Below, one piece after another: positions 3,218 to 14,249 of a DNA stretch of 64,000 nucleotides. The stretch is from assembly GCA_943846585.1 (NCBI GenBank), contig OX044349.1, forward strand, positions 1,028,008 to 1,092,007. Reading direction: 5' to 3'. Source of the DNA: an uncultured Polaribacter sp. (lineage in GTDB: Bacteria; Bacteroidota; Bacteroidia; Flavobacteriales; Flavobacteriaceae). Within the stretch, counting starts at the first letter, position 1, and each line of letters begins with the position of its first letter. The notes under the pieces were generated by a model, which had not been told where the DNA came from, ran no database searches, and saw only the letters and a program-made list of their open reading frames with translations. The translations under genes were made by a program, and so were the position numbers.

Positions 3218-4726
3218 ATGAAGAAAATACTTTTTTTGATCTCGTTACTATTGTTCTCCTGTTCAGAGGAACCAGAATTGCTTTTTACTACTCCTGGAGA
3301 ATTGACAACCTTCGCCTTTAAAAAATCGATTAACCCAAATTTAACATCCGATTTGGTGTTGAATTTTGACGGTGTGGATACCTTCACAGGATCCTTGAAT
3401 TACCGAACAGCCATCGAAAATTTAGTAGCTACTTTTGAAACTGTAGGAGGAACGGTGACCGTTCAAAACGTTCCGCAAATAAGTGGAGAAACCGAAAACG
3501 ACTTCAATCAAGTTGTTACTTACACCGTTTTAAATTCTGACGGCACCAACCCAAGGAATTATTATATAGACATTACCTACTTTACGGGATTGCCGGTCAT
3601 TTCAATTCAAACCAATGGAGTTTCAATCGATTCCAAAGAGAATTATGTAGTAGGAACGGTAAGCATACAAGGGGCTCGAGAATTTGAAAACCTTGAAGAA
3701 CAAGCAATGAGTATCCGAGGAAGAGGAAATTCTACTTGGTTTGGTCCGCCTAAAAAACCCTATCAATTAAAATTTAGTGATAAAACAGCCATTTTAGGCA
3801 TGCCCAAAGATAAAAGATGGGTTTTCTTAGCGGAGTATTCAGACAAGTCGCTTTTAAGAAATAAAATTTCTTTGGAATTGGGCGCTATGAGTGTGCTTGA
3901 ATATACACCAAAGGGTGAATTTTCTGAAGTATTCATAAACGACGAATACAACGGAACCTATCTCGTTGTCCAAAAAGTAGAAGTGAAGAGCAATCGCCTC
4001 GATTTGCCCGACAATGGATATTTAGTGGAGATCGATCAATACTATCGCTTAGGAGCTGACGATGTGTTTTTTCAACCGACAATTTTTACACAAAATTATT
4101 CAGAAAACGTTTTTGCAGTAAAAGCACCCGCTTTAGATTTTGGCAGTCCAGAACTTGCTTTGATTGAGGAACACATCAATGTTTTTGAGGCCGTCTTGTT
4201 TGGAGACGATTTTAAAAACCCAACAACAGGCTATCGAGCATACATTGATTTGCCTAGTTTTGTAGACTGGTACCTCATCCAAGAAATCGCAAAAAGTGTA
4301 GATGCCAAATGGTATTCTAGCATCTATTTTAACTATCTGCCCGGCGAAAAAATTAAAATGGGTCCATTGTGGGATTTTGATCTTTCATATGGCAATGTAG
4401 ATTATGCAGACTCTAGGTATTCCGAAGGTTTTTGGATCAAAGACAATCCTTGGTATGCACGTTTATTTCAAGACCCATATTTCGAAAACTTGGTCAAAGA
4501 ACGCTTTCTGTATTTTTATAACAATACTGATCTTCTTTTAAGCAACCTAGACAGTCATGAAAATTATCTGGTCTTAGCCCAAGAAAAAAACTATCAAAAA
4601 TGGCAAACTCTTGGCACCTATGTTTGGCCAAACCCTGTTTTTTTCGATACCCATGCTGAGGAGGTTACCCACTTGAAATCGTGGATTTCCAATCGGATGA
4701 GTTGGCTGTATGGTCAGTTTAATTAG
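3218..4726 (+). CDS. CotH-family atypical kinase, lipoprotein with N-terminal Ig-like (DUF5018-like) domain
   Basis: Lipobox LLFSC; CotH motifs IRGRGNSTW, KKPYQLKF, RWVFLAEYSDKSLLRN, MGPLWDFDLSYG. Confidence 0.85.
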   Translation: MKKILFLISLLLFSCSEEPELLFTTPGELTTFAFKKSINPNLTSDLVLNFDGVDTFTGSLNYRTAIENLVATFETVGGTVTVQNVPQISGETENDFNQVVTYTVLNSDGTNPRNYYIDITYFTGLPVISIQTNGVSIDSKENYVVGTVSIQGAREFENLEEQAMSIRGRGNSTWFGPPKKPYQLKFSDKTAILGMPKDKRWVFLAEYSDKSLLRNKISLELGAMSVLEYTPKGEFSEVFINDEYNGTYLVVQKVEVKSNRLDLPDNGYLVEIDQYYRLGADDVFFQPTIFTQNYSENVFAVKAPALDFGSPELALIEEHINVFEAVLFGDDFKNPTTGYRAYIDLPSFVDWYLIQEIAKSVDAKWYSSIYFNYLPGEKIKMGPLWDFDLSYGNVDYADSRYSEGFWIKDNPWYARLFQDPYFENLVKERFLYFYNNTDLLLSNLDSHENYLVLAQEKNYQKWQTLGTYVWPNPVFFDTHAEEVTHLKSWISNRMSWLYGQFN

Positions 4727-6930: not shown

Positions 6931-8151
6931 ATGAAACACATTGCTGCTCCTTTTACATTGCCCAACGGATCCGTCTTAAAAAATAGAATTGCAAAGTCTG
7001 CAATGAGTGAAAATTTTGGAACCCGAAAACACGCTCCTAGTAAGGGGTTGATACATGCATATCGGGTTTGGGCAAAAGGAAACCCAGGCTTGCTTATTAC
7101 TGGAAATATAATGGTAGATTCCATGGCATTGGGGGAAGCCCGCAATGTGGTTGTAGAAGATTACAAAGATTTTGAGCTGTTAAAACAATGGGCAAAATCT
7201 GTAGAAGGAACCGGAGTACATCTTTGGCCTCAAATAAACCATCCAGGAAGACAGGCCTTTGCAGCCATTAACAGAGAAATCGTAGCACCTTCTGCTGTAC
7301 CCCTTAAAATGGGCGGTGCTTCTAAAATGTTTAAAATGCCTACAGCTTTGACGGAAGAAGCGATTTGGGACATTATCAAACGTTTTGGAACCACGGCAAG
7401 AATCATGAAAGAAGCGGGGTTTACAGGCTGTCAAATTCATGGTGCTCATGGGTATTTGGTCAGTCAATTTTTATCACCCAACAGCAACATCCGAACTGAT
7501 CAATGGGGAGGATCTTTGGCCAACAGAGCGCGCTTTGTTTTAGAAATTTACCGAGAAATTCGCCGTCAAGTAGGCGCTGCCTATCCCATAGGCATTAAGA
7601 TTAATTCTGCAGATTTTCAGCGAGGAGGTTTTACCGAAGAAGCATCGATGGAAGTCGTTCGTATTCTCGGAAATGAAGGCATTGATCTGATTGAAATTTC
7701 TGGAGGCACCTATGAAAAACCTGCCATGATTACTGGAGATCGAAAGAAAAGCACCGTTGAACGCGAAGCGTATTTTTTAAGCTATATTGAGAAAGCACGA
7801 AAGCTTACAAAAACGCCTTTGCTCTTAACAGGAGGATTTCGTTCGGTTGCTATTATGGACAAAGCTTTGGAGGAAGGAAATCTTGATGTGGTTGGTTTGG
7901 CCAGACCCTTTTGTTTGTACCCTAATTTGGCAAATCAAATTTTTGATGGGTCTGTAAAACGTTTCGAAGCACCAATTCCGAGCATTGGAATCAAATTTCT
8001 CGACCAATTGGGGGGCGTAGAACTTCCTTGGTACGAGCTTCAAATTCAACGTCTTGGAAAAGGAAAATCGCCCAAAAAAAACCTGCCGGGCATCTTGGCC
8101 TTTTGGTTCAGTTTGAAGAGTTTGTTTTTTAAATCTTTTTGGAAGAATTAA
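6931..8151 (+). CDS. NADH:flavin oxidoreductase / Old Yellow Enzyme family
   Basis: NRIAKSAMSE, QINHPGRQ, QIHGAHGYLVSQFLSP, NIRTDQWGGS, GLARP motifs. Confidence 0.9.
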   Translation: MKHIAAPFTLPNGSVLKNRIAKSAMSENFGTRKHAPSKGLIHAYRVWAKGNPGLLITGNIMVDSMALGEARNVVVEDYKDFELLKQWAKSVEGTGVHLWPQINHPGRQAFAAINREIVAPSAVPLKMGGASKMFKMPTALTEEAIWDIIKRFGTTARIMKEAGFTGCQIHGAHGYLVSQFLSPNSNIRTDQWGGSLANRARFVLEIYREIRRQVGAAYPIGIKINSADFQRGGFTEEASMEVVRILGNEGIDLIEISGGTYEKPAMITGDRKKSTVEREAYFLSYIEKARKLTKTPLLLTGGFRSVAIMDKALEEGNLDVVGLARPFCLYPNLANQIFDGSVKRFEAPIPSIGIKFLDQLGGVELPWYELQIQRLGKGKSPKKNLPGILAFWFSLKSLFFKSFWKN

Positions 8152-8193
8152 CGACTCACTTATTTTTTAGGTACTCACGATATTTAAAGACGC

Positions 8194-8224
8194 AAAAACC
8201 CACAGCCTTAAAAAGTTGTGGGTT
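8194..8224 (-). terminator. Intrinsic terminator-like hairpin beyond the displaced ssrA 3' fragment
   Basis: AACCCACA(GCCTTAAAAAGT)TGTGGGTT stem with an A5 run giving a U-tract on the minus strand; same stem as the hairpin at 12521-12551; could also terminate the convergent OYE gene. Confidence 0.7.
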
Positions 8225-8232
8225 ATTACTTT

Positions 8233-8247
8233 GTGGAGACGCCGAGA
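8233..8247. repeat. Direct repeat of the ssrA 3' end (att-like site, distal copy)
   Basis: GTGGAGACGCCGAGA at 8233-8247 is identical to 12557-12571; 19/21 identity when extended to 8253. Confidence 0.9.
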
Positions 8248-8340
8248 CTTGAAGAGCTCTTTTAGGGTGTGCTTAAAACCCTTTAAAATTAGTAATTCCT
8301 CAATATTTTCGATCTATAAGCTATTTTTAAAAGGTTTTTA

Positions 8341-8377
8341 GAAGATGAATAGGATAGCATGAAGATGAATAAGATAG
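8341..8377. repeat. Imperfect 17-bp direct repeat pair, 20-bp period
   Basis: GAAGATGAATAGGATAG (8341-8357) and GAAGATGAATAAGATAG (8361-8377). Confidence 0.85.
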
Positions 8378-8382
8378 AGATA

Positions 8383-8404
8383 ATGTTGACTAGATGTTGA
8401 CTAG
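8383..8404. repeat. Perfect 11-bp tandem repeat, candidate integrase arm-type sites
   Basis: ATGTTGACTAG x2 (8383-8393, 8394-8404), about 135-155 bp inside the distal att repeat; function inferred. Confidence 0.7.
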
Positions 8405-8444
8405 AATTTCACTACTAATTTTTATTAAATCTAATTTCTCAGCT

Positions 8445-9764
8445 TTATAAAATATTACCATACTCCGATTTATTAATTGATATAACTTTATACCTTTTAT
8501 CAAAAGTAGATTTTGATACAATTAGAAAATCGTTTCTATTTTTTGTAATTATTTTTAATTTTAGATTTATTTGCGTTATCATTTGGTTTCTAATTCGTTC
8601 GTTTTGAATTTTACTCAAATGATCTTGACTTACAATATCCATTACCTCGGAAAAATTCGTATCTTTTTTACTTATAATCTTAATTAATGAAATCGACAGA
8701 CTGTCTAGTTCTATAAATTCATTTTTAAACTGAATTCCATTTTCTAACAGTTGTATTTTTTTATTTTTCTGAAATCGTCTATAATAATAGAGTAAGGTAG
8801 ACAATCCCATAATGATTATTAATGTTATTATAAATATCAGAACAGAATAGTCCTTGGAATAAAAGTCATCTTTGTTATAAATGTCTTTAGTGATATCTTT
8901 AAGTTGTATTTTAGAGACCATCCTTCTTTTATTTATGTAGTAAACGAAATCATCGTAAAATATAGGATTTATATTTTCAAAATCATATAATTTTGGTGTT
9001 CTGATATAACTCGTTATTTTGTTATTATAAATAGTTATTTTATATAATTGTTTAGTTTCATCTAAAATATATAAGTCACCTTTATCATTAAAACTTCCGA
9101 AAATTTGATTCAAATTTTCTTCTTCATAGCTTCCTAGTAAAGACCATTTCTTGTTAACGAAATTAAAATTCCAGACATCTCTATTTACTCTGTTTTTTAT
9201 TCTTGATCCATTTTCTGTTAAAGATGTTCCTCCAAAGAAAGAATAATTACTACCCCAATTGATTCCAATATGTGAGTCTGTTGATCTAGGAATTTCTGAC
9301 TCACTAGAAATTGTGTAAATTTCCCATTCCTTTGTTAATTCATCATAATAAGTTATGAAATTAGACTGACTCCAATAACCATAACCACCATGTTTGAAAA
9401 GAGTATCGTTTTTTATAAAATTAACATTGTCAAGAAAAAAATTATGAATATTAGAATTATCAATTTTTACTAAGCTATCTTTTGTATTTAGTTTCAAAAT
9501 ATCTCCTCCTTTCTTATCTAAAAATAAAAGTTTTCTTTTCTTTATAAAGACTTTAAATTTTAAATCTTTAGCTCTTTTTATCTTCTTTTTATTGAGGATT
9601 TTCAAACTCTTAGAATCAACAAAGTATAAGGATTTATTTGTGAGATAAATGATCTCTTTATTTATAGAATCTAATGCGATATTAATTGGAATTTCATATG
9701 AATCCTTTTCCTGCGAAATAGTGAATATTGGAAGTAGAAAAATGATTTTTAAGAATGATTTCAT
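8445..9764 (-). CDS. Predicted single-pass membrane one-component regulator: kelch-like periplasmic domain, TM helix, C-terminal OmpR/PhoB-like winged helix
   Basis: N-terminal signal-like segment; kelch-like GGYGYW...YYDELTKEWE and FFGG...VWNFNFVNKKWS; TM aa ~307-328 followed by RRFQKNKK; C-terminal pattern strand-strand-LD-helix-helix-RIRNQMITQINLKL-hairpin. Confidence 0.6.
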   Translation of the reverse strand: MKSFLKIIFLLPIFTISQEKDSYEIPINIALDSINKEIIYLTNKSLYFVDSKSLKILNKKKIKRAKDLKFKVFIKKRKLLFLDKKGGDILKLNTKDSLVKIDNSNIHNFFLDNVNFIKNDTLFKHGGYGYWSQSNFITYYDELTKEWEIYTISSESEIPRSTDSHIGINWGSNYSFFGGTSLTENGSRIKNRVNRDVWNFNFVNKKWSLLGSYEEENLNQIFGSFNDKGDLYILDETKQLYKITIYNNKITSYIRTPKLYDFENINPIFYDDFVYYINKRRMVSKIQLKDITKDIYNKDDFYSKDYSVLIFIITLIIIMGLSTLLYYYRRFQKNKKIQLLENGIQFKNEFIELDSLSISLIKIISKKDTNFSEVMDIVSQDHLSKIQNERIRNQMITQINLKLKIITKNRNDFLIVSKSTFDKRYKVISINKSEYGNIL

Positions 9765-9922
9765 TTATATGATGTTAGTTAAAGTTAATTACAATCGACT
9801 ATAAATTTATAGAAACTAGAAATTATATTTTTTATATACTTTGTGTATTTTATAGCATCAATATAATGATGTTATTTAAATCAGGCAAATTTGCTTTTAT
9901 TTGTTATTATAAATAACATTCC

Positions 9923-12505
9923 ATGGCTAAATCATTTTTATTTCTACTACTCTCAATTTTTTTTTCAAATACTCTAAATTCTCAAACTTTTATTATTAAT
10001 TCTGGTAATACTCTTGATGCTGATGATCCTATAAATATTGTATTTCAATTAGATTCCATTATACAAAATAATATTTTTCCAATAGAAGAATTAAACTCTG
10101 ACCCAATAACAGTCAAATTTGAACATGTAGAAACACTCGTATACCAACCCAATGAAAATAATGTTGAAAATCCTTACAGGTATGAAACAAAAGAGTATGA
10201 TTTTGAAGATAAAATTATTACCCTATCAAATGTAGAAGGTACTTTTAAATATTCATTTGAATCCGAGGATAATTTTTTAGAATATTTTGATATTCCAATC
10301 GGTGAAAAGATGACATCTATTAGTATGTGGGTTGAATTCCCTAATTCTAATTTTTTTAATAATGACTTTTATGACACTAACTCAGAACAATATATTGGAG
10401 TTGTTGGTCCATATGGTCCACAATTTGAAGTTTTTTTTAAAGAGGGAATTGACAAAACCTTGTATTCAAATGTTTTTACAGTCTCAAACAATGTAGTTAA
10501 CTCTAACCTCAATAGTCTAATAATTTCGGCTACGGATGATATTAATATTGTGGTAAGAGATGATTGTGGTTCCGATAATTGTGAGAGATGGTTAGATAAT
10601 GCAAAAAAAAACTTGGCACATCCAATTTTTTCCGATTTTACTGGTGATGGTGTTAATGATTTAGTTGCTCGTGTATACAGTCTCGGTCTTGGAGACATTG
10701 ATTGGGAGTTAACAGATGAAGAGAAGGCTTTATATTTTTCGAGGTGGGTTTTGTTTAAAGGTGAGTCGTTCGGTGAAAACGAAGTTCAATACTCTTTTCA
10801 TTCTAGTTATGATCAAATAAATGAGGCTATCATACTTTATTCAAAAGATTTAGATGGTGATGGAGATTTAGATATTTATACAGTACCAGATGTATATCAC
10901 GGACTTGAATCCAATATGCCAGATGATTGGTCTGGGGAAGTAATTCTTTATTTGAATGACGGAAGTGGAACTTTTACTAGATTAGATGAAGATGTTGTCT
11001 TTCCTCCAAAAAGTATAATTGGACAACTAGATACAGATTCAGATATCGAATCAATTGGTTCACTTGCAAATAAATATGATTCAAGATACCTTTGGTTAGG
11101 TGAGAATTCTTCAGTGATTCAATTTTTCGACAAAGTAAATGGATCATACACTGAAACCAGATCTCCAGAAATATTTATCGAGCCAAAAGATGGAAACGAA
11201 ATTTTCTATAGAAAAGTAGTAGATTTGAAATTATATGACTTTAATAATGACGGTAACGATGATATTCTTTTTTGGTTGAGCCAACAAGAAATGTTAGAAA
11301 TTTATTTCGACGATGAGGGTAATTTTATAGGAGATACAGATACAATGTCACTTGAAGAATTAGGATTCATTTCTGAAAATTATTTTATAATCATACATGG
11401 TTCTGATACTGGATTTGATTTATCAAATACTGATTTTTCTAATGATATCCTATATACGTATTCCTCAAATTCATATGACGAGCATTATTCCTTTGATATC
11501 GTTCAACTGAGTGAAGGAAAAGATGTTGTATTCTTTATGGACATATTTTCTTCAGGACAATATGAAGATCTTTTCGATGATATTTATAACGGACCAATGT
11601 CAACGTTGTATGCTCTAGATATAGCTGGGGAGAACCTAACAGATATAACCAGTTCATTTTTTCAAAATGAGTCGAATATAAATTACATCTCATCTTCAAA
11701 TGCACCTGAATTTATGGATTTCAATAATGATGGATTACTTGATATCTATTTTTGGGGAGGTTGGGCCACATCAGCTACTGCTGCCAAATCACTATTCTTG
11801 ATCAATAAGACAACTCATTTTGAGAATGCTGTCGTTCCATTTCCAGATGTTAATGAATTTTTGTTGGGTGATTTTAATAATGACGGATATGTAAACTCAT
11901 TTCAACTGGTTGATAACGATTTAAAGTGGGCAACAAATATTCAGGTTTTTATAGAAAACGGTAGGAAAACTATAGATTATGAAAATAATACTCCTGTAAT
12001 TTTAAAACTACTTTTAGATACCACAATCCCAGTAATCACCCTAGTAGGAGATACAACCGTGACAATTGAAGTAGGAACTACCTACTCAGATGCAGGGGCC
12101 ACAGCATCTGATAACTATGATGGTGATATAACATCAAGTATTGTAGCTGTGAACCCAGTGGATGTTGGAGTTGTTGGTCAGTACACCGTAACTTACGATG
12201 TAACTGATGCTAATGGTAATCCAGCAAGTACTGTTACAAGAACAGTCATTGTGGAGTCAAGTCTTTCAGTTGAAGAGAATGATGAAAATGAGTTCAAAAT
12301 ATATCCAAACCCAACACTAAGTTCTTGGAAAATTAATTCCTCAAAAATTATAAAATCTCTTGAAATATTTGACTTAATTGGTAGGAAAGTATTGTTTAAA
12401 AAGCCAATGGCTAAAGATTTTGAAATTGACGCTAGTTTTTTACCAACAGGAATATATGTTATGGTCTTAAATAATAATATTATATCTAGATTAATTAAGA
12501 GTTAA
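9923..12505 (+). CDS. T9SS-secreted FG-GAP/VCBS-repeat protein with DUF5011 Ig-like domain and type A C-terminal sorting domain
   Basis: Signal peptide; DFTGDGVNDL, DLDGDGDLDI, DFNNDGNDDI, DFNNDGLLDI, DFNNDGYVN repeats; DTTIPVITLVGD...GATASDNYDGD...YTVTYDVTDANGN (DUF5011); FKIYPNPT...IFDLIGR...LPTGIYVM CTD. Confidence 0.88.
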   Translation: MAKSFLFLLLSIFFSNTLNSQTFIINSGNTLDADDPINIVFQLDSIIQNNIFPIEELNSDPITVKFEHVETLVYQPNENNVENPYRYETKEYDFEDKIITLSNVEGTFKYSFESEDNFLEYFDIPIGEKMTSISMWVEFPNSNFFNNDFYDTNSEQYIGVVGPYGPQFEVFFKEGIDKTLYSNVFTVSNNVVNSNLNSLIISATDDINIVVRDDCGSDNCERWLDNAKKNLAHPIFSDFTGDGVNDLVARVYSLGLGDIDWELTDEEKALYFSRWVLFKGESFGENEVQYSFHSSYDQINEAIILYSKDLDGDGDLDIYTVPDVYHGLESNMPDDWSGEVILYLNDGSGTFTRLDEDVVFPPKSIIGQLDTDSDIESIGSLANKYDSRYLWLGENSSVIQFFDKVNGSYTETRSPEIFIEPKDGNEIFYRKVVDLKLYDFNNDGNDDILFWLSQQEMLEIYFDDEGNFIGDTDTMSLEELGFISENYFIIIHGSDTGFDLSNTDFSNDILYTYSSNSYDEHYSFDIVQLSEGKDVVFFMDIFSSGQYEDLFDDIYNGPMSTLYALDIAGENLTDITSSFFQNESNINYISSSNAPEFMDFNNDGLLDIYFWGGWATSATAAKSLFLINKTTHFENAVVPFPDVNEFLLGDFNNDGYVNSFQLVDNDLKWATNIQVFIENGRKTIDYENNTPVILKLLLDTTIPVITLVGDTTVTIEVGTTYSDAGATASDNYDGDITSSIVAVNPVDVGVVGQYTVTYDVTDANGNPASTVTRTVIVESSLSVEENDENEFKIYPNPTLSSWKINSSKIIKSLEIFDLIGRKVLFKKPMAKDFEIDASFLPTGIYVMVLNNNIISRLIKS

Positions 12506-12520
12506 TTATATAAGAATAAT

Positions 12521-12551
12521 AAAACCCACATCTTCAAAGGTGTGGGTTTTT
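12521..12551 (-). terminator. ssrA intrinsic terminator (probably bidirectional)
   Basis: AAAACCCACA(TCTTCAAAGG)TGTGGGTTTT; A and T runs on both sides; lies between the convergent T9SS gene and ssrA. Confidence 0.8.
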
Positions 12552-12556
12552 ATTAA

Positions 12557-12571
12557 GTGGAGACGCCGAGA
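12557..12571. repeat. att-like repeat, proximal copy within the ssrA 3' end
   Basis: GTGGAGACGCCGAGA, identical to 8233-8247. Confidence 0.9.
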
Positions 12572-12824
12572 ATCGAACTCGGGTCCAAACAAGCAGCAAA
12601 AAAGCTTTCTACATATATAGTTCTTACTTGGTTGTCGGCCTAAAACTGATTAAGAACAATCCATTTTAAACGTATCTTTTTCAATTTCAAAAACTTGCCA
12701 AAGCATCAAGTTTCCTATGTTTACTTTTTCGATGCCCAAAAGTGAAACGCCGTAAACCAAGGCTTTTCGTGGACATAAAGCTTTCCCGCCTTGCGGGACT
12801 AGGCCAATCCTACTATGATTCGGA

Positions 12825-12854
12825 TTAAGCAGCTAAAGCGTAGTTATCTTCGCC
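12825..12854 (-). other. tmRNA-encoded proteolysis tag (A)GEDNYALAA*
   Basis: GGC GAA GAT AAC TAC GCT TTA GCT GCT TAA read on the minus strand; matches the Bacteroidota GExNYALAA tag type. Confidence 0.92.
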
Positions 12855-12967
12855 GGTTAAATAGTTGAAATGAGTTTTACAAGAATGATTTCAGTCCTTG
12901 ATATGCTTACAAATTTACAGAACTTGCTGTCAAAACCAGTCGTCCCCAGTTTTTTTTAATTCATTTA

Positions 12968-12975
12968 CAAAAGTA
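12968..12975 (-). promoter_or_regulatory. Bacteroidota sigma-A -7 element for ssrA
   Basis: TACTTTTG (TAnnTTTG) on the minus strand 21 nt upstream of the mature tmRNA 5' end. Confidence 0.65.
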
Positions 12976-13040
12976 TAAAAAATCTAGTTGCCCATCTTTA
13001 TAAAATCCAATATCTTCGAACAAATATTACAGCACAGAAA

Positions 13041-14249
13041 ATGACAAAGTTTGGAATTATTAAAGAACGTAAAAACCCGCCAGATAGGAGGGTTGTATTC
13101 TCACCAGAAAAGCTATCCCAATTCAAAAAGAAGTTTACAGGTGCTTCAATAAAAGTAGAAGCTTCGCCCATTAGAGTTTTTACAGACGCAGCTTATCAAA
13201 AAGAAGGTATTGAAGTGTCTCCCAATATGTCGGACTGTGATGTACTTATTGGGGTAAAAGAAGTGCCAATAGAAGCCTTACTTCCCAATAAAAAATATTT
13301 TTTCTTTAGTCATACTATTAAAAAACAACCCTATAATAGAAAATTATTACAGGCTGTTATCGATAAAAACATCACACTCTACGACCACGAAGTAATTGTA
13401 AAAGAAAACGGAATGCGTTTAATTGGGTTTGGACGGTATGCAGGCATCGTAGGCGCATACAACGGTTTTAGAGCGATTGGCTTAAAAAAAGACACCTTTC
13501 TGTTGCCCAAGGCAGCAACCTTAGGCAGTCAGCAAGAATTGATTGATCAGCTAAAGAACATTCAACTACCAAATATTAAAATAGCGCTTACTGGAAATGG
13601 AAAAGTAGCCAGAGGCGCCAAAGAAATGTTAGATGCAATGCAAATTGAACAAGTAGCTGTTACAGCCTATTTGACCCAAACATTTACAAAGCCAGTGTAT
13701 TGCATGATTGATGTGTTGGATTACAACAAACGCACCGATGGGCAAGTACTTAATAATAGCGACTTTTACAACCATCCAGAAAAATACGAAGCCAATTTTA
13801 TGCGCTTTGCAAAAGTAACCGACTATTTTATTGCGGGGCATTTCTTCGGAGAGGGTTCGCCTTATTTATTTACAAGAGAAGATGCAAAAAAACAAGACTT
13901 TAAGATTCAATACATAGCAGACATTTCATGTGATATAGACGGTCCAGTAGCCGCTACGATAAGACCTTCTACCATTGCAGATCCAATCTATGGATACGAC
14001 CCAAGTACCGAAAAAGAAGTAGATTTTAAAGCTGACAATGCCATTGTGGTCATGGCGGTAGACAATTTGCCTTGTGAGTTGCCAAAAGACGCCAGCGAAG
14101 GGTTTGGAGAATTGTTTTTAGAACACGTGATTCCTGCTTTCTTTAACAACGATAAAGAAGGCGTTTTGGCGCGTGCAAAAATGACAGAAAATGGAAAATT
14201 AACACCTCGATTTTCTTATTTACAAGATTATCTTGACGGAAAAGAATAA
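13041..14249 (+). CDS. Saccharopine dehydrogenase / lysine-ketoglutarate reductase-like NAD(P)-dependent oxidoreductase (AlaDh/PNT fold)
   Basis: KERKNPPDRRVVFSP, GVKEVP, FFSHTIKKQPYN, GRYAGIVGAYNG, IADISCDIDG, AVDNLPCELPKDASEGFG. Confidence 0.8.
   Translation: MTKFGIIKERKNPPDRRVVFSPEKLSQFKKKFTGASIKVEASPIRVFTDAAYQKEGIEVSPNMSDCDVLIGVKEVPIEALLPNKKYFFFSHTIKKQPYNRKLLQAVIDKNITLYDHEVIVKENGMRLIGFGRYAGIVGAYNGFRAIGLKKDTFLLPKAATLGSQQELIDQLKNIQLPNIKIALTGNGKVARGAKEMLDAMQIEQVAVTAYLTQTFTKPVYCMIDVLDYNKRTDGQVLNNSDFYNHPEKYEANFMRFAKVTDYFIAGHFFGEGSPYLFTREDAKKQDFKIQYIADISCDIDGPVAATIRPSTIADPIYGYDPSTEKEVDFKADNAIVVMAVDNLPCELPKDASEGFGELFLEHVIPAFFNNDKEGVLARAKMTENGKLTPRFSYLQDYLDGKE

Follow-up and report, generated by a model that had tools for sequence, protein, structure and literature searches.

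An integrase-less 4,324-bp islet at the ssrA 3' end of an uncultured Polaribacter, probably a CIME-type element that hitch-hikes with integrase-bearing neighbours

In a 64-kb stretch of DNA from an uncultured Polaribacter sp. (64,000 nt, hereafter the window), an islet of 4,309 bp (8248-12556) lies between the native terminator next to the OYE gene and the 3' end of ssrA, the tmRNA gene; counted together with one copy of the 15-bp direct repeat that bounds it, the unit is 4,324 bp long. The features of the locus are as follows:

8195-8232, no strand assigned: native hairpin terminator (AAAACCCACAGCC..GTTGTGGGTT) that separates ssrA from the OYE gene and forms the B flank of attB
8233-8247, minus strand: left direct repeat, the displaced last 15 nt of ssrA and core of the distal att site (exact match to 12557-12571)
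8248-8409, plus strand: integrase-proximal attachment arm (P-arm homologue), integrase gene missing (homology to the arms of L016 and L106)
8341-8377, plus strand: two 17-bp direct repeats GAAGATGAATA(G/A)GATAG, 20 bp apart, candidate protein-binding sites (the window's only two matches; kept by most arms of the family)
8384-8404, plus strand: TGTTGACTAG twice, with a spacing of 11 bp; both copies are candidates for arm-type integrase binding (fixed GTTGACTA offsets)
8445-9764, minus strand: cargo gene 1, for a membrane protein of 439 aa that has a signal peptide, a single TM helix and, besides a Kelch-like beta-propeller, a C-terminal domain of ~110 aa (weak Pfam Kelch/beta-propeller hits, translation, AlphaFold)
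9923-12505, plus strand: cargo gene 2, for a protein of 860 aa, secreted or at the surface, that combines FG-GAP repeats and an Ig-like domain with a T9SS sorting domain at the C-terminus (Pfam, TIGR04183, translation)
12517-12551, minus strand: islet-borne hairpin terminator in place of the native ssrA terminator, whose CCCACA/TGTGGG stem it shares (fold and 42-nt likeness)
12557-12571, minus strand: right direct repeat, 3' end of the intact ssrA and core of the proximal att site (ARAGORN, Rfam, repeat search)
12557-12947, minus strand: ssrA (tmRNA gene), the integration target (ARAGORN; Rfam RF00023)

The tmRNA placed by ARAGORN carries the tag GEDNYALAA and matched its Rfam model over the full length at 139.5 bits (gathering score 47), and the reverse complement of the 15-mer GTGGAGACGCCGAGA gives the final 15 nt of the gene, namely the 3' strand of the T-stem plus the acceptor (CCA is not encoded). 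The initial annotation had reported this 15-mer at 8233 and 12557, on either side of 4309 bp in which it saw only two AT-rich genes and no recombinase, and the repeat search, ORFs, GC content and Pfam all agreed. Exactly two copies are present in the window, at these two places on the plus strand, with no third copy even when 2 mismatches were allowed and 0 hits in 100 shuffles; within the window, then, the repeat is not one of many dispersed copies, the circumstance that would have spoken against an insertion. The likeness around the two repeats goes beyond the 15-mer, to 42 nt at 83% (8212-8253 versus the hairpin region on the ssrA side). The native hairpin, called as terminator-like, folds at -16.5 kcal/mol and has a U-run after it when read on the strand of ssrA. 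The GC content of the islet is 28.4% versus 34.9% in the remaining window, and its GC3 is 21% versus 27-37% for neighbouring genes.

No tyrosine integrase gene was identified in the islet by Pfam and NCBIfam searches of both ORFs or by window-wide tblastn and HMM searches, and none was found in the whole 64-kb window by Pfam or tblastn; an HMM of 7 Flavobacteriaceae ssrA integrases run against the 196 window ORFs gave a best E-value of 0.14 and no integrase. Two other kinds of element were considered and rejected. A transposon, IS or MITE is at odds with the lack of a transposase, with ends that are direct rather than inverted repeats and with a repeat that is the ssrA 3' end, present in two window copies. 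A prophage or phage satellite is at odds with a content of just two non-phage genes and with the absence of the arm and the junction from IMG/VR.

The two cargo genes are the only ORFs of the islet and are transcribed divergently. Cargo gene 2 was matched by PF13517, PF16403 and PF18962 as well as by TIGR04183, and a signal peptide can be read from the N-terminus of its translation. For the Kelch-like protein the AlphaFold model had a pLDDT of 68, Foldseek with the whole model returned generic propellers (TM ~0.3), and a PDB profile search returned only Kelch propellers and domains. Its C-terminal domain had no Pfam match up to an E-value of 10; that it is a winged helix is our guess from the predicted topology. 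The pair, a membrane beta-propeller plus a T9SS surface protein, looks regulated. In metatranscriptome contigs the islet is covered less deeply than its flanks, by which expression is suggested and no more, since contig depth measures it poorly and DNA carry-over is possible. We speculate that the cargo, which is strain-variable within abundant marine polysaccharide degraders, may affect the cell surface, phage susceptibility or particle attachment.

Two loci of the same species with flanks 99.8-100% identical (L007 and L008) have an empty site, each being the window minus exactly 4,324 bp, namely one repeat plus the 4,309 bp. They read ...TTATTACTTT-GTGGAGACGCCGAGA-ATCGAACTCGG, with one repeat copy only, and in them the native terminator directly abuts the ssrA 3' end, which is the OYE-terminator-ssrA arrangement that the initial annotation had suggested looking for in related genomes. 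Between the empty L007 and the occupied L005 there were 0 differences in 5,191 bp on the left and 4 in 11,693 bp on the right, a divergence no greater than that among occupied strains, and empty and occupied haplotypes are interleaved. Judged from these flanks, the gain or loss of the islet is apparently recent. Cargo at the site also varies among strains, as a comparison suggested at the outset made clear. Five states at ssrA coexist in the population, as found in sequences that are mostly metagenome assemblies, and possibly chimeric: empty, islet, 13-kb island, islet and 13-kb island in tandem, and islet and a second integrase island in tandem. The islet alone is the commonest state, and in all states ssrA remains intact and acquires a terminator hairpin. 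In natural sample X11 the flanks had a depth of ~350-460 versus 263 for the islet, in X13 the values were ~260-300 versus 43, and unitigs in natural samples break at the repeats. One locus (L014) has an odd ssrA allele amid otherwise identical flanks.

The 13-kb island (L016/L002) encodes an arm-binding integrase with Arm-DNA-bind_5, SAM_5 and Phage_integrase domains (assigned in L016); its other genes are for a Xis-like protein of the HTH_17 type, for a VapE-like primase and for cargo. In L016 the order is islet, core, 13-kb island, and the islet there differs from that of the window at the right-end hairpin as well; in L019 it is islet, core, second integrase island. The 13-kb island lies directly at the OYE terminator in L106, where the islet is missing, and L002 holds its other end, at ssrA. 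The general expectation that ssrA 3' ends are targets of tyrosine integrases is thus realized in this very species, in which the same 15-bp core is used by L016, L106 and L019. The module formed by the integrase, next to the P arm, and HTH_17 is present in L016, L118 and L119 and is lacking beside the islet arm.

Over its left ~160 bp the islet is 92-96% identical to the integrase-proximal arm of the 13-kb island of the same species, with which it shares the 15-bp core. Window positions 8231-8409 align with L016:4350-4529 at 92.8% identity over 180 bp, core included, and the L106 arm is 96% identical. Homology to the L016 arm stops ~40 bp ahead of the integrase ATG, about where the integrase gene begins, and at this expected integrase start the islet arm runs directly into the 3' end of the Kelch-like gene. 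Relative to the core, GTTGACTA is found in the islet at +152/+163, in the left arm only, and at +142/+153/+164 in relatives retrieved by integrase homology; its background frequency is 0.008 per kb per strand. The independent loci for this motif are L118-L121 and L002, found through integrase or AlaDH homology, since L101-L106 were retrieved by searching with the GTTGACTAG repeat as pattern. Conservation of the block among L101-L106 is therefore ascertained and no evidence of selection, and we dropped an argument for selection on the arm that had been based on it. The arm repeats TGTTGACTAG and GAAGATGAATAnGATAG are candidate binding sites, to which the integrase may bind.

A chance repeat or local duplication without any insertion has to be weighed at this point, as pairs of identical 15-mers anywhere in 64 kb are not rare (~2 expected by our own arithmetic). 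A second copy of this particular 15-mer, however, has a chance expectation of ~1e-4, and the repeat is the exact ssrA 3' end in direct orientation. The foreign composition of the islet also speaks against chance, and the exact empty site and an arm homologous to that of integrase elements already refute it, so we give this explanation practically no credence.

The ssrA-side end of the islet is of a different kind. It consists of 51 bp only, containing a hairpin (-14.7 kcal/mol, then a U-run) with no GTTGACTA upstream of it. All integrase-bearing relatives that were checked have GTTGACTA additionally at -66/-55 ahead of the ssrA-side core, and the elements of the family have a CCTCAAC hairpin preceded by this motif, unlike the islet. 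The islet right end does not match that of the 13-kb island; it has in common with native ssrA terminators (window 8195-8232, L103) the CCCACA/TGTGGG stem, and in L101 and L125, which represent one allele of a second species, the native terminator loop is matched too. Since the canonical P' arm of the family is not what the islet has on its right, a single internal deletion of a 13-kb-type element is insufficient to explain it, and this candidate was rejected for its mismatched right end and missing P' motifs.

These ends could also reflect an aberrant excision, similar to capture in specialised transduction. The gene pair and hairpin would then be chromosomal DNA of a Polaribacter donor with low GC, taken from just past its ssrA 3' end, and illegitimate excision of an adjacent integrase element would have given a circle with core and P arm and no integrase, which later integrated elsewhere. 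The native-type stem and, in L101 and L125, loop of the hairpin are consistent with such an origin, as are the hairpin of a different type in family elements, the junction of P arm and cargo where the integrase gene should begin and the occurrence of the Kelch/FG-GAP pair as a conserved module outside islands (L114, L115). Yet no genome was found with the pair natively beside ssrA, and a circle with one arm would have to integrate by a non-standard reaction. One locus (L107) holds a 94% copy that has lost the left arm and the repeat and lies amid chromosomal sugar genes beside decayed cores; it was rejected as the native home of the pair, which is compositionally foreign there too (28.8% versus 34.0% GC). 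On balance we regard an origin by aberrant excision as distinctly unlikely.

The same integrase-less unit occurs at 95-99% identity in a second Polaribacter species. In L101 homology to the window begins exactly at the left core, where identity rises from 40% to 86-99% (99% across 10183-11982), and the arm-to-cargo breakpoint is identical in both species. Past the right core, the ssrA of L101 is only 88.5% identical, a level found between species whose AlaDH proteins are 75-78% identical, and the left neighbour is unrelated. Sharing of the unit at such identity, starting exactly at the core, indicates its recent transfer between species. In the second species the islet adjoins ssrA with no recognisable helper beside it; the end of its left neighbour has no GTTGACTA at -66/-55, and no intact helper was seen. 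Further integrase-less variants bearing the arm are L102 and L103, and an Aquimarina locus (L085) has a Fic/HipBA islet.

One may ask whether the islet is an inert remnant, decayed after a single integration, fixed as cargo and no longer engaged in site-specific recombination, its presence or absence being due to ancestral polymorphism with homologous recombination or to rare deletion between the 15-bp repeats. The integrase, the Xis-like gene and the P' arm motifs are all missing, the L107 copy is an example of decay, and the islets of the first species are near-identical (0-3 mismatches over ~4.3 kb relative to the window in most loci) and always in the same place. Nor were excised circles, composite circles or attP junctions detected: there was no back-joint of the islet ends in Logan contigs from three DNA runs, no terminal overlap in islet-sized contigs (4.2-4.5 kb), which were not circular, and neither the arm repeat nor the core-arm junction in IMG/VR. 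Against an inert remnant stand the base-precise empty site, the interleaved empty and occupied haplotypes and the second species, where the unit sits at 95-99% identity beside an 88.5% identical ssrA and an unrelated left neighbour. Inter-species sharing that starts from the exact core would hardly arise unless recombination had taken place there, and we consider an inert remnant unlikely.

A further possibility is that the two att sites of the islet suffice for an integrase from elsewhere in the cell (an island, a plasmid or an incoming element) to move the 4.3-kb unit on its own. Both cores are intact, the left arm has all the family repeats at the family spacing, the islet alone is the commonest state, and the islet of the second species stands beside ssrA without a recognisable helper. 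However, arm-dependent (lambda-type) tyrosine integrases normally require sites on both arms, and the 51-bp end lacks the GTTGACTA motifs that every checked integrase-bearing relative has at -66/-55. As the window also contains no integrase, movement of the islet alone in trans strikes us as improbable, slightly more so than aberrant excision. The initial annotation had offered an island reduced to its useful cargo or a cassette mobilised by an integrase elsewhere. Both notions gain support, from the retained arm and from the inter-species unit, and they are not exclusive; what fared less well is simple trans action, because the missing second-arm motifs make mobilisation in cis with a tandem neighbour likelier.

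Our preferred reading, which we think is probably correct, is that the 4,324-bp unit is a non-autonomous, CIME-type integrative islet that hitch-hikes with integrase-bearing neighbours. The reading brings together the insertion with its exact borders, the empty site, the arm homology, the shared core, the tandems, the polymorphism and the sharing between species. Against it count the lack of circles and attP junctions in the contigs and IMG/VR, the non-canonical right end and the second species, where no intact helper was seen. Retained in the islet are both copies of the core and, with its repeats, the ~160-bp integrase-proximal arm; it lacks the integrase, the Xis-like gene and the ssrA-proximal arm motifs, as judged by Pfam, HMM and motif searches. 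[quoted passage not shown] Having moved between species as an integrase-less unit, it was presumably mobilised, although it probably cannot move alone. As the most likely route we infer excision and transfer of a composite, for which the sharing between species within the limits of the cores is indirect support. With a tandem helper between islet and ssrA, the arrangement of L016, the left att site of the islet would provide the P arm and the right att site of the helper the P' arm, and because the two form a complete pair, the composite could leave the chromosome, be transferred and integrate again; if the helper afterwards excised without the islet, the islet-only state of the window would remain.

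If cis-mobilisation is true, a helper circle reading ...GTTGAGGTGTTTTTTG-core-CTTGAATAGC... and a composite circle reading ...GTTGAGGTGTTTTTTG-core-CTTGAAGAGC... should be present, and an islet-only circle reading ...GGGTTTTTATTAA-core-CTTGAAGAGC... should be absent or far rarer. The testable rule is that one retained arm plus the other arm of a neighbour would permit cis-mobilisation. A broader conjecture, to which we attach little weight, is that marine Flavobacteriaceae exchange ssrA cargo in a cassette-like manner, with one-armed integrase-less units (core, P arm, cargo and terminator) shuttled between species by helpers of a single large integrase clade that lend only the P' arm and the enzymes. 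Such units would include the Polaribacter islet, L102, L103 and the Aquimarina islet, and would possibly be generated by aberrant excisions capturing DNA beside ssrA. The kind of element, a non-autonomous genomic islet, is already known; the locus is a well-documented case, and the states found side by side in a single wild population of Polaribacter illustrate with unusual completeness how islands at a tmRNA gene are built up and dismantled in nature.

CIMEs are known from the ICESt1/ICESt3 family of Streptococcus thermophilus, and accretions of CIMEs with IMEs or ICEs occur in streptococci. By the definitions of CIME and accretion in PMC5704250, such elements have attL and attR of an ICE or IME family on their flanks and no integration or transfer genes; they occur singly or share their site with an integrase-bearing element in tandem, and composite movement has been proposed or shown. 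The islet likewise has no integration or transfer genes (Pfam, NCBIfam, HMM) and stands in tandem with integrase-bearing elements at its site in L016 and L019. At its two putative att sites the 15-bp cores are intact and the left arm is 92-96% identical to that of the family, with the motifs at family spacing; the right side is without the -66/-55 GTTGACTA. In contrast to streptococcal CIMEs, which target fda or a tRNA gene, it targets ssrA in a host of the Bacteroidota, has family arm motifs on one arm only and is known from sequence alone, and its helpers resemble, as a family, not so much ICEs as small elements of the integrative or mobilizable kind. The ssrA islands of Dehalococcoides (PMC3146451) are similar in their tandem arrangement downstream of ssrA and in having direct repeats of the ssrA 3' end as limits; some lack an integration module, and the authors suggested that these are possibly cis-mobilizable. 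They differ in using the serine recombinase DsiB, a 20-bp repeat and reductive dehalogenase cargo, whereas the family of the islet uses arm-binding tyrosine integrases and a 15-bp repeat.

As in the tDNA and tmRNA islands of Islander (PMC4383910), where the gene is restored by the island, an intact tmRNA gene and a displaced 3'-end fragment in direct orientation bound the islet, and the uninterrupted site (L007, L008) equals the occupied one minus the island and one repeat. The crossover segment extends from the T-stem region to the 3' end, which fits the sublocation scheme of Williams 2002 as it is cited in PMC4383910. Islander demands an integrase gene inside the island, so the islet would be filtered out, and integrase-requiring finders of this type would overlook elements like it. 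The tycheposons of Prochlorococcus (bioRxiv 10.1101/2020.12.28.424599), too, are cargo elements of marine hosts at tRNA and tmRNA genes, with successive integrations that shift older elements outward, partial tRNA copies, degenerate remnants and heterogeneity of excision within populations. What defines a tycheposon is a recombinase and replication genes of its own, whereas the islet carries neither and the integrases related to it belong to a different clade, that of the Flavobacteriaceae.

The 15-mer GTGGAGACGCCGAGA was found by exact search at two positions in the window, starting at 8233 and 12557, with no further copy there even when two mismatches were allowed and none in 100 shuffles; across 64 kb, chance alone would produce some identical pair of 15-mers, but not a second copy of this one. 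ARAGORN and Rfam identified a full-length tmRNA gene (ssrA, tag GEDNYALAA), with an Rfam score of 139.5 bits versus a gathering score of 47, and because of its placement the 15-mer, read in reverse complement, is the final 15 nt of ssrA, so that the copy at 8233 is a displaced ssrA 3' fragment in direct orientation. Degenerate similarity around the repeats reaches 42 nt at 83%. The 4,309-bp interval between the two copies, here called the islet, contains two ORFs and is arranged with its flanks as follows:

Left flank: penicillin amidase gene and OYE-family oxidoreductase gene
8445-9764, minus strand: Kelch-like gene (439 aa; signal peptide, weakly Kelch-like beta-propeller, one TM helix and a C-terminal domain of ~110 aa)
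9923-12505, plus strand: FG-GAP gene (860 aa; signal peptide, FG-GAP repeats, bacterial Ig-like domain and T9SS type A sorting domain)
12557-12947, minus strand: ssrA, opening the right flank
Remainder of right flank: AlaDH-like gene and DAHP synthase gene

The islet has a GC content of 28.4% versus 34.9% in the remaining window and a GC3 of 21% versus 27-37% for neighbouring genes, and resemblance to a recombinase was absent from both its ORFs and from every ORF of the 64-kb window. The initial annotation, which had described a 15-mer repeat bracketing 4309 bp with two AT-rich genes and no recombinase, was therefore correct on each of these points. The best genome match of the AlaDH-like gene product (81%) is in Polaribacter sp. 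HL-MS24, followed only by other Polaribacter and Flavobacteriaceae, and the region occurs in sequencing runs from marine or seawater metagenomes. Together with the T9SS sorting domain of the cargo and the tmRNA tag, the AlaDH-like matches indicate an uncultured marine Polaribacter.

Loci of the same species were retrieved from public assemblies, mostly of metagenomes, by exact matches to the AlaDH-like protein and the 860-aa cargo protein, yielding 20 loci with flank identities of 99.8-100%. The empty site that the initial annotation had proposed to look for was identified in contigs L007 and L008, in which the OYE terminator directly adjoins ssrA (...TTATTACTTT|GTGGAGACGCCGAGA|ATCGAACTCGG) and the sequence equals the window minus exactly 4,324 bp, with one repeat copy remaining. 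We conclude that the islet entered the 3' end of ssrA and that its insertion duplicated 15 bp. The empty contig L007 and the occupied contig L005 show no differences in 5,191 bp of left flank and four in 11,693 bp of right flank, a divergence no greater than that between occupied strains, and empty haplotypes are interspersed among occupied ones. Logan contigs from natural samples resolve the islet as a separate unitig at lower depth than its flanks (~263 versus 350-460 in run X11; 43 versus 260-300 in X13), and therefore occupied and empty forms coexist in the sea. In the comparison of cargo at this site that the initial annotation had also proposed, content varies among strains, and this one species shows five states: an empty site, the islet alone, a 13-kb island alone, and the islet in tandem with either the 13-kb island or a second island. 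One occupied contig, L014, matches the window in its islet (100%) and right flank (99.95%), but its ssrA allele (L014:4471-4860) shares only about 92-95% identity with the window's; either the metagenome assembly is chimeric or ssrA has recombined internally in connection with island traffic.

In contig L016 the islet is followed by a third core copy (the 15-bp repeat) and then by the 13-kb island, whose other end adjoins ssrA in L002 (overlap 99%). This island carries the following:

430-aa tyrosine integrase (weak Arm-DNA-bind_5 match, SAM_5 and catalytic domains)
HTH_17 protein
VapE-like primase
Respiratory and metabolic cargo
IS240-family transposase

The left arm of the islet (8248-8409, 160 bp) is 92.8% identical to the core-to-integrase stretch of the L016 island and 96% identical to the corresponding arm in L106, where the 13-kb island lies directly at the OYE terminator without the islet. 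The homology ends just past the last arm repeat, ~40 bp ahead of the L016 integrase start codon, and the islet continues instead into the 3' end of the Kelch-like gene. A chance repeat was excluded by this arm homology to integrase elements and the exact empty site. The recognition of the ssrA 3' end as a tyrosine integrase target thus held, in that the L016-type island uses the shared 15-bp core; L019 has another integrase island at the identical position, with a 413-aa integrase 32% identical to that of the 13-kb island. The L016 integrase has more than 3,000 relatives (E <= 1e-30), distributed over Polaribacter, Tenacibaculum, Winogradskyella and further genera. Those of L118 (Polaribacter glomeratus) and L119-L121 are 77-78% identical to it, and the elements that encode them share the identical 15-bp core. 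L118 (9784-21329) is itself a tandem at the shared core, with a first element of 4.7 kb (integrase 77% identical) and a second encoding its own integrase, a DUF3987 primase-like protein, a NikA-like protein and a relaxase. The second is therefore an integrative mobilizable element and, judging from its gene content, a possible vehicle for cell-to-cell transfer.

The islet arm holds two copies of GAAGATGAATA(G/A)GATAG and two copies of TGTTGACTAG, 11 bp apart. In L118-L121, which were found by integrase homology, the integrase side has GTTGACTA at +142/+153/+164 relative to the core, and the motif lies in L118, L119 and L002 also at -66 and/or -55 ahead of the ssrA-side core, against a background of 0.008 per kb per strand; these repeats are candidate arm-type integrase sites. 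The islet has GTTGACTA at +152/+163 on the left and none near its right core, and is therefore one-armed. Pure mobilisation of the islet alone by an integrase acting in trans would account for the frequency of the islet-only state, but is very unlikely given the missing motifs of the ssrA-side (P') arm.

At the right end of the islet, the 51 bp from the cargo stop codon to the repeat form a hairpin. The islet, native and 13-kb island hairpins each have a predicted stem and U-run directly after ssrA, and thus ssrA gets a terminator in every state. The islet stem sequence equals that of the native hairpin, and the integrase-bearing family has a different, CCTCAAC-type hairpin. Aberrant excision that captured DNA beside ssrA would explain both the native-like hairpin and the one-armed structure; we consider this origin quite unlikely, as no native donor arrangement was found and the gene pair is compositionally foreign at every place seen. 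In the L016 tandem (4320-4366) the islet right hairpin is replaced by ...CCCACATTGGGTAAATT ahead of the core, and an X1 contig with a loose end at window 12557 has ...TTTGTGGGTAAATT joined to the ssrA core; the 10-25 bp that immediately precede the core therefore vary, or have recombined, between elements. A second Polaribacter species likewise has two hairpin alleles (L122/L124 versus L101/L125).

A metagenome scan with the arm repeat as query found six more loci, and L101, with L105 and L122-L127, represents the integrase-less unit in that second species. The L101 unit is 94.7% identical to the islet overall with an unchanged arm-to-cargo breakpoint, and its identity climbs from ~40% left of the core to 86% within the arm and 99% across 10183-11982. 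Past the right core, the ssrA segment is 88.5% identical by BLAST (74% in 150-bp bins of a global alignment), a value also measured for Polaribacter species with AlaDH identities to the window of only 75-78%, and the left neighbour is the end of another island with a YdjC gene rather than OYE. Given the core-bounded identity, diverged ssrA and different left neighbour, the integrase-less unit must have moved between species recently. This sharing speaks against the islet being an inert remnant, an unlikely reading to which the missing arm and the lack of observed circles would otherwise lend weight: no circle or attP junction was seen in Logan contigs, islet-sized contigs or IMG/VR. The islet is also a mosaic between the species (9923-12505 versus L101:6933-9539), with ~1.8 kb of the FG-GAP gene at 99% but the arm and the Ig-like region (around 11983-12282) at 84-89%. 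Nonsynonymous codon differences exceed synonymous ones (FG-GAP, 44 versus 34; Kelch, 37 versus 25), and this pattern suggests that islet alleles have recombined and that selection on the surface proteins is relaxed or diversifying.

Core and arm are common to the islet and the integrase family, and tandem accretion, population polymorphism and inter-species sharing are all seen at this site. Lacking an enzyme and P' sites, the islet would probably be unable to recombine alone. The outer pair in L016 (islet core and integrase-proximal P arm; P' arm and core of the integrase-bearing helper) would make up a complete att pair, through which the composite could excise and reintegrate, and excision of the helper through its own sites would leave the islet-only state of the window. 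For some family relatives, tandem residence with a relaxase-bearing mobilizable element, as in L118, may provide a route between cells.

Other integrase-less variants were also identified. L107, an islet copy of 94% identity from which the left arm and repeat have been lost, lies among sugar-metabolism genes adjoining decayed cores and shows the decay end of the islet spectrum. In two further lineages, L102 (2835-3964) and L103 (reverse strand, 1200-1510), an islet-type arm (81-85% identical) is followed by non-integrase DNA, and therefore integrase loss beside a retained arm is recurrent, although both loci were retrieved with the arm motif itself. The L102 arm lies beside DNA related to the 13-kb island's IS240-family region. 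Two unrelated contigs (L102:2745-2835; L107, reverse complement, last 250 bp) share a conserved module of ~90 bp (..GGGAGTGAAGTCGAnCTATTTTGG..AGGATTTA..), which precedes a native-like hairpin, is enclosed by decayed core copies and looks like a miniature remnant persisting in arrays. Among 61 loci from Flavobacteriaceae species that extend 3 kb or more past the ssrA 3' end, an integrase adjoins ssrA in five and repeat copies occur without an integrase in two. One of the latter, in Aquimarina sp. (L085:5618-9503), is an integrase-less islet of ~3.9 kb bounded by a 15-mer copy with two mismatches, with a Fic-domain protein and a HipA(N/C)-HTH toxin-antitoxin-like (HipBA-like) module as cargo.

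The divergent Kelch-like/FG-GAP pair is conserved in other contigs (Kelch-like protein identity 53-62%), and many marine Flavobacteriaceae have a homologue of just the Kelch-like gene (~50% identity), set in a chromosomal neighbourhood that is unrelated and itself conserved. In the Kelch-like protein, the signal peptide and beta-propeller precede the single TM helix (about residues 307-335) and the C-terminal domain. The AlphaFold model builds this domain from three strands, then three helices, then a beta-hairpin, an order with which an OmpR-type winged helix would be consistent. On the basis of this modelled topology and the conserved divergent arrangement (9765-9922), the protein could act on the FG-GAP gene as a one-component membrane sensor-regulator; no sequence or fold match backing either idea was found. 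Metatranscriptome contigs of X5 and X14 (7600-13200) cover the whole islet at ~1/3 to 1/6 of the OYE-flank depth, with ssrA far deeper, which suggests that the cargo is transcribed in situ.

The islet has the features of a tDNA island other than the integrase gene that Islander requires within an island (PMC4383910). The proposed islet-helper movement corresponds to the scheme of cis-mobilizable elements (CIMEs) and accretion described for streptococcal elements (PMC5704250), and a CIME scheme has been suggested for integrase-less ssrA islands of Dehalococcoides (PMC3146451). From its sequence, the islet would fit the CIME definition (PMC5704250), with a putative right att site and putative mobilisation. 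A marine parallel is offered by the tycheposon arrays of Prochlorococcus. There are precedents for att-flanked islets that lack an integrase, for tandem accretion and for ssrA as a hot spot; new are the lineage (Polaribacter and a Flavobacteriaceae integrase clade), the one-armed structure with fixed motif offsets and the complete population states.
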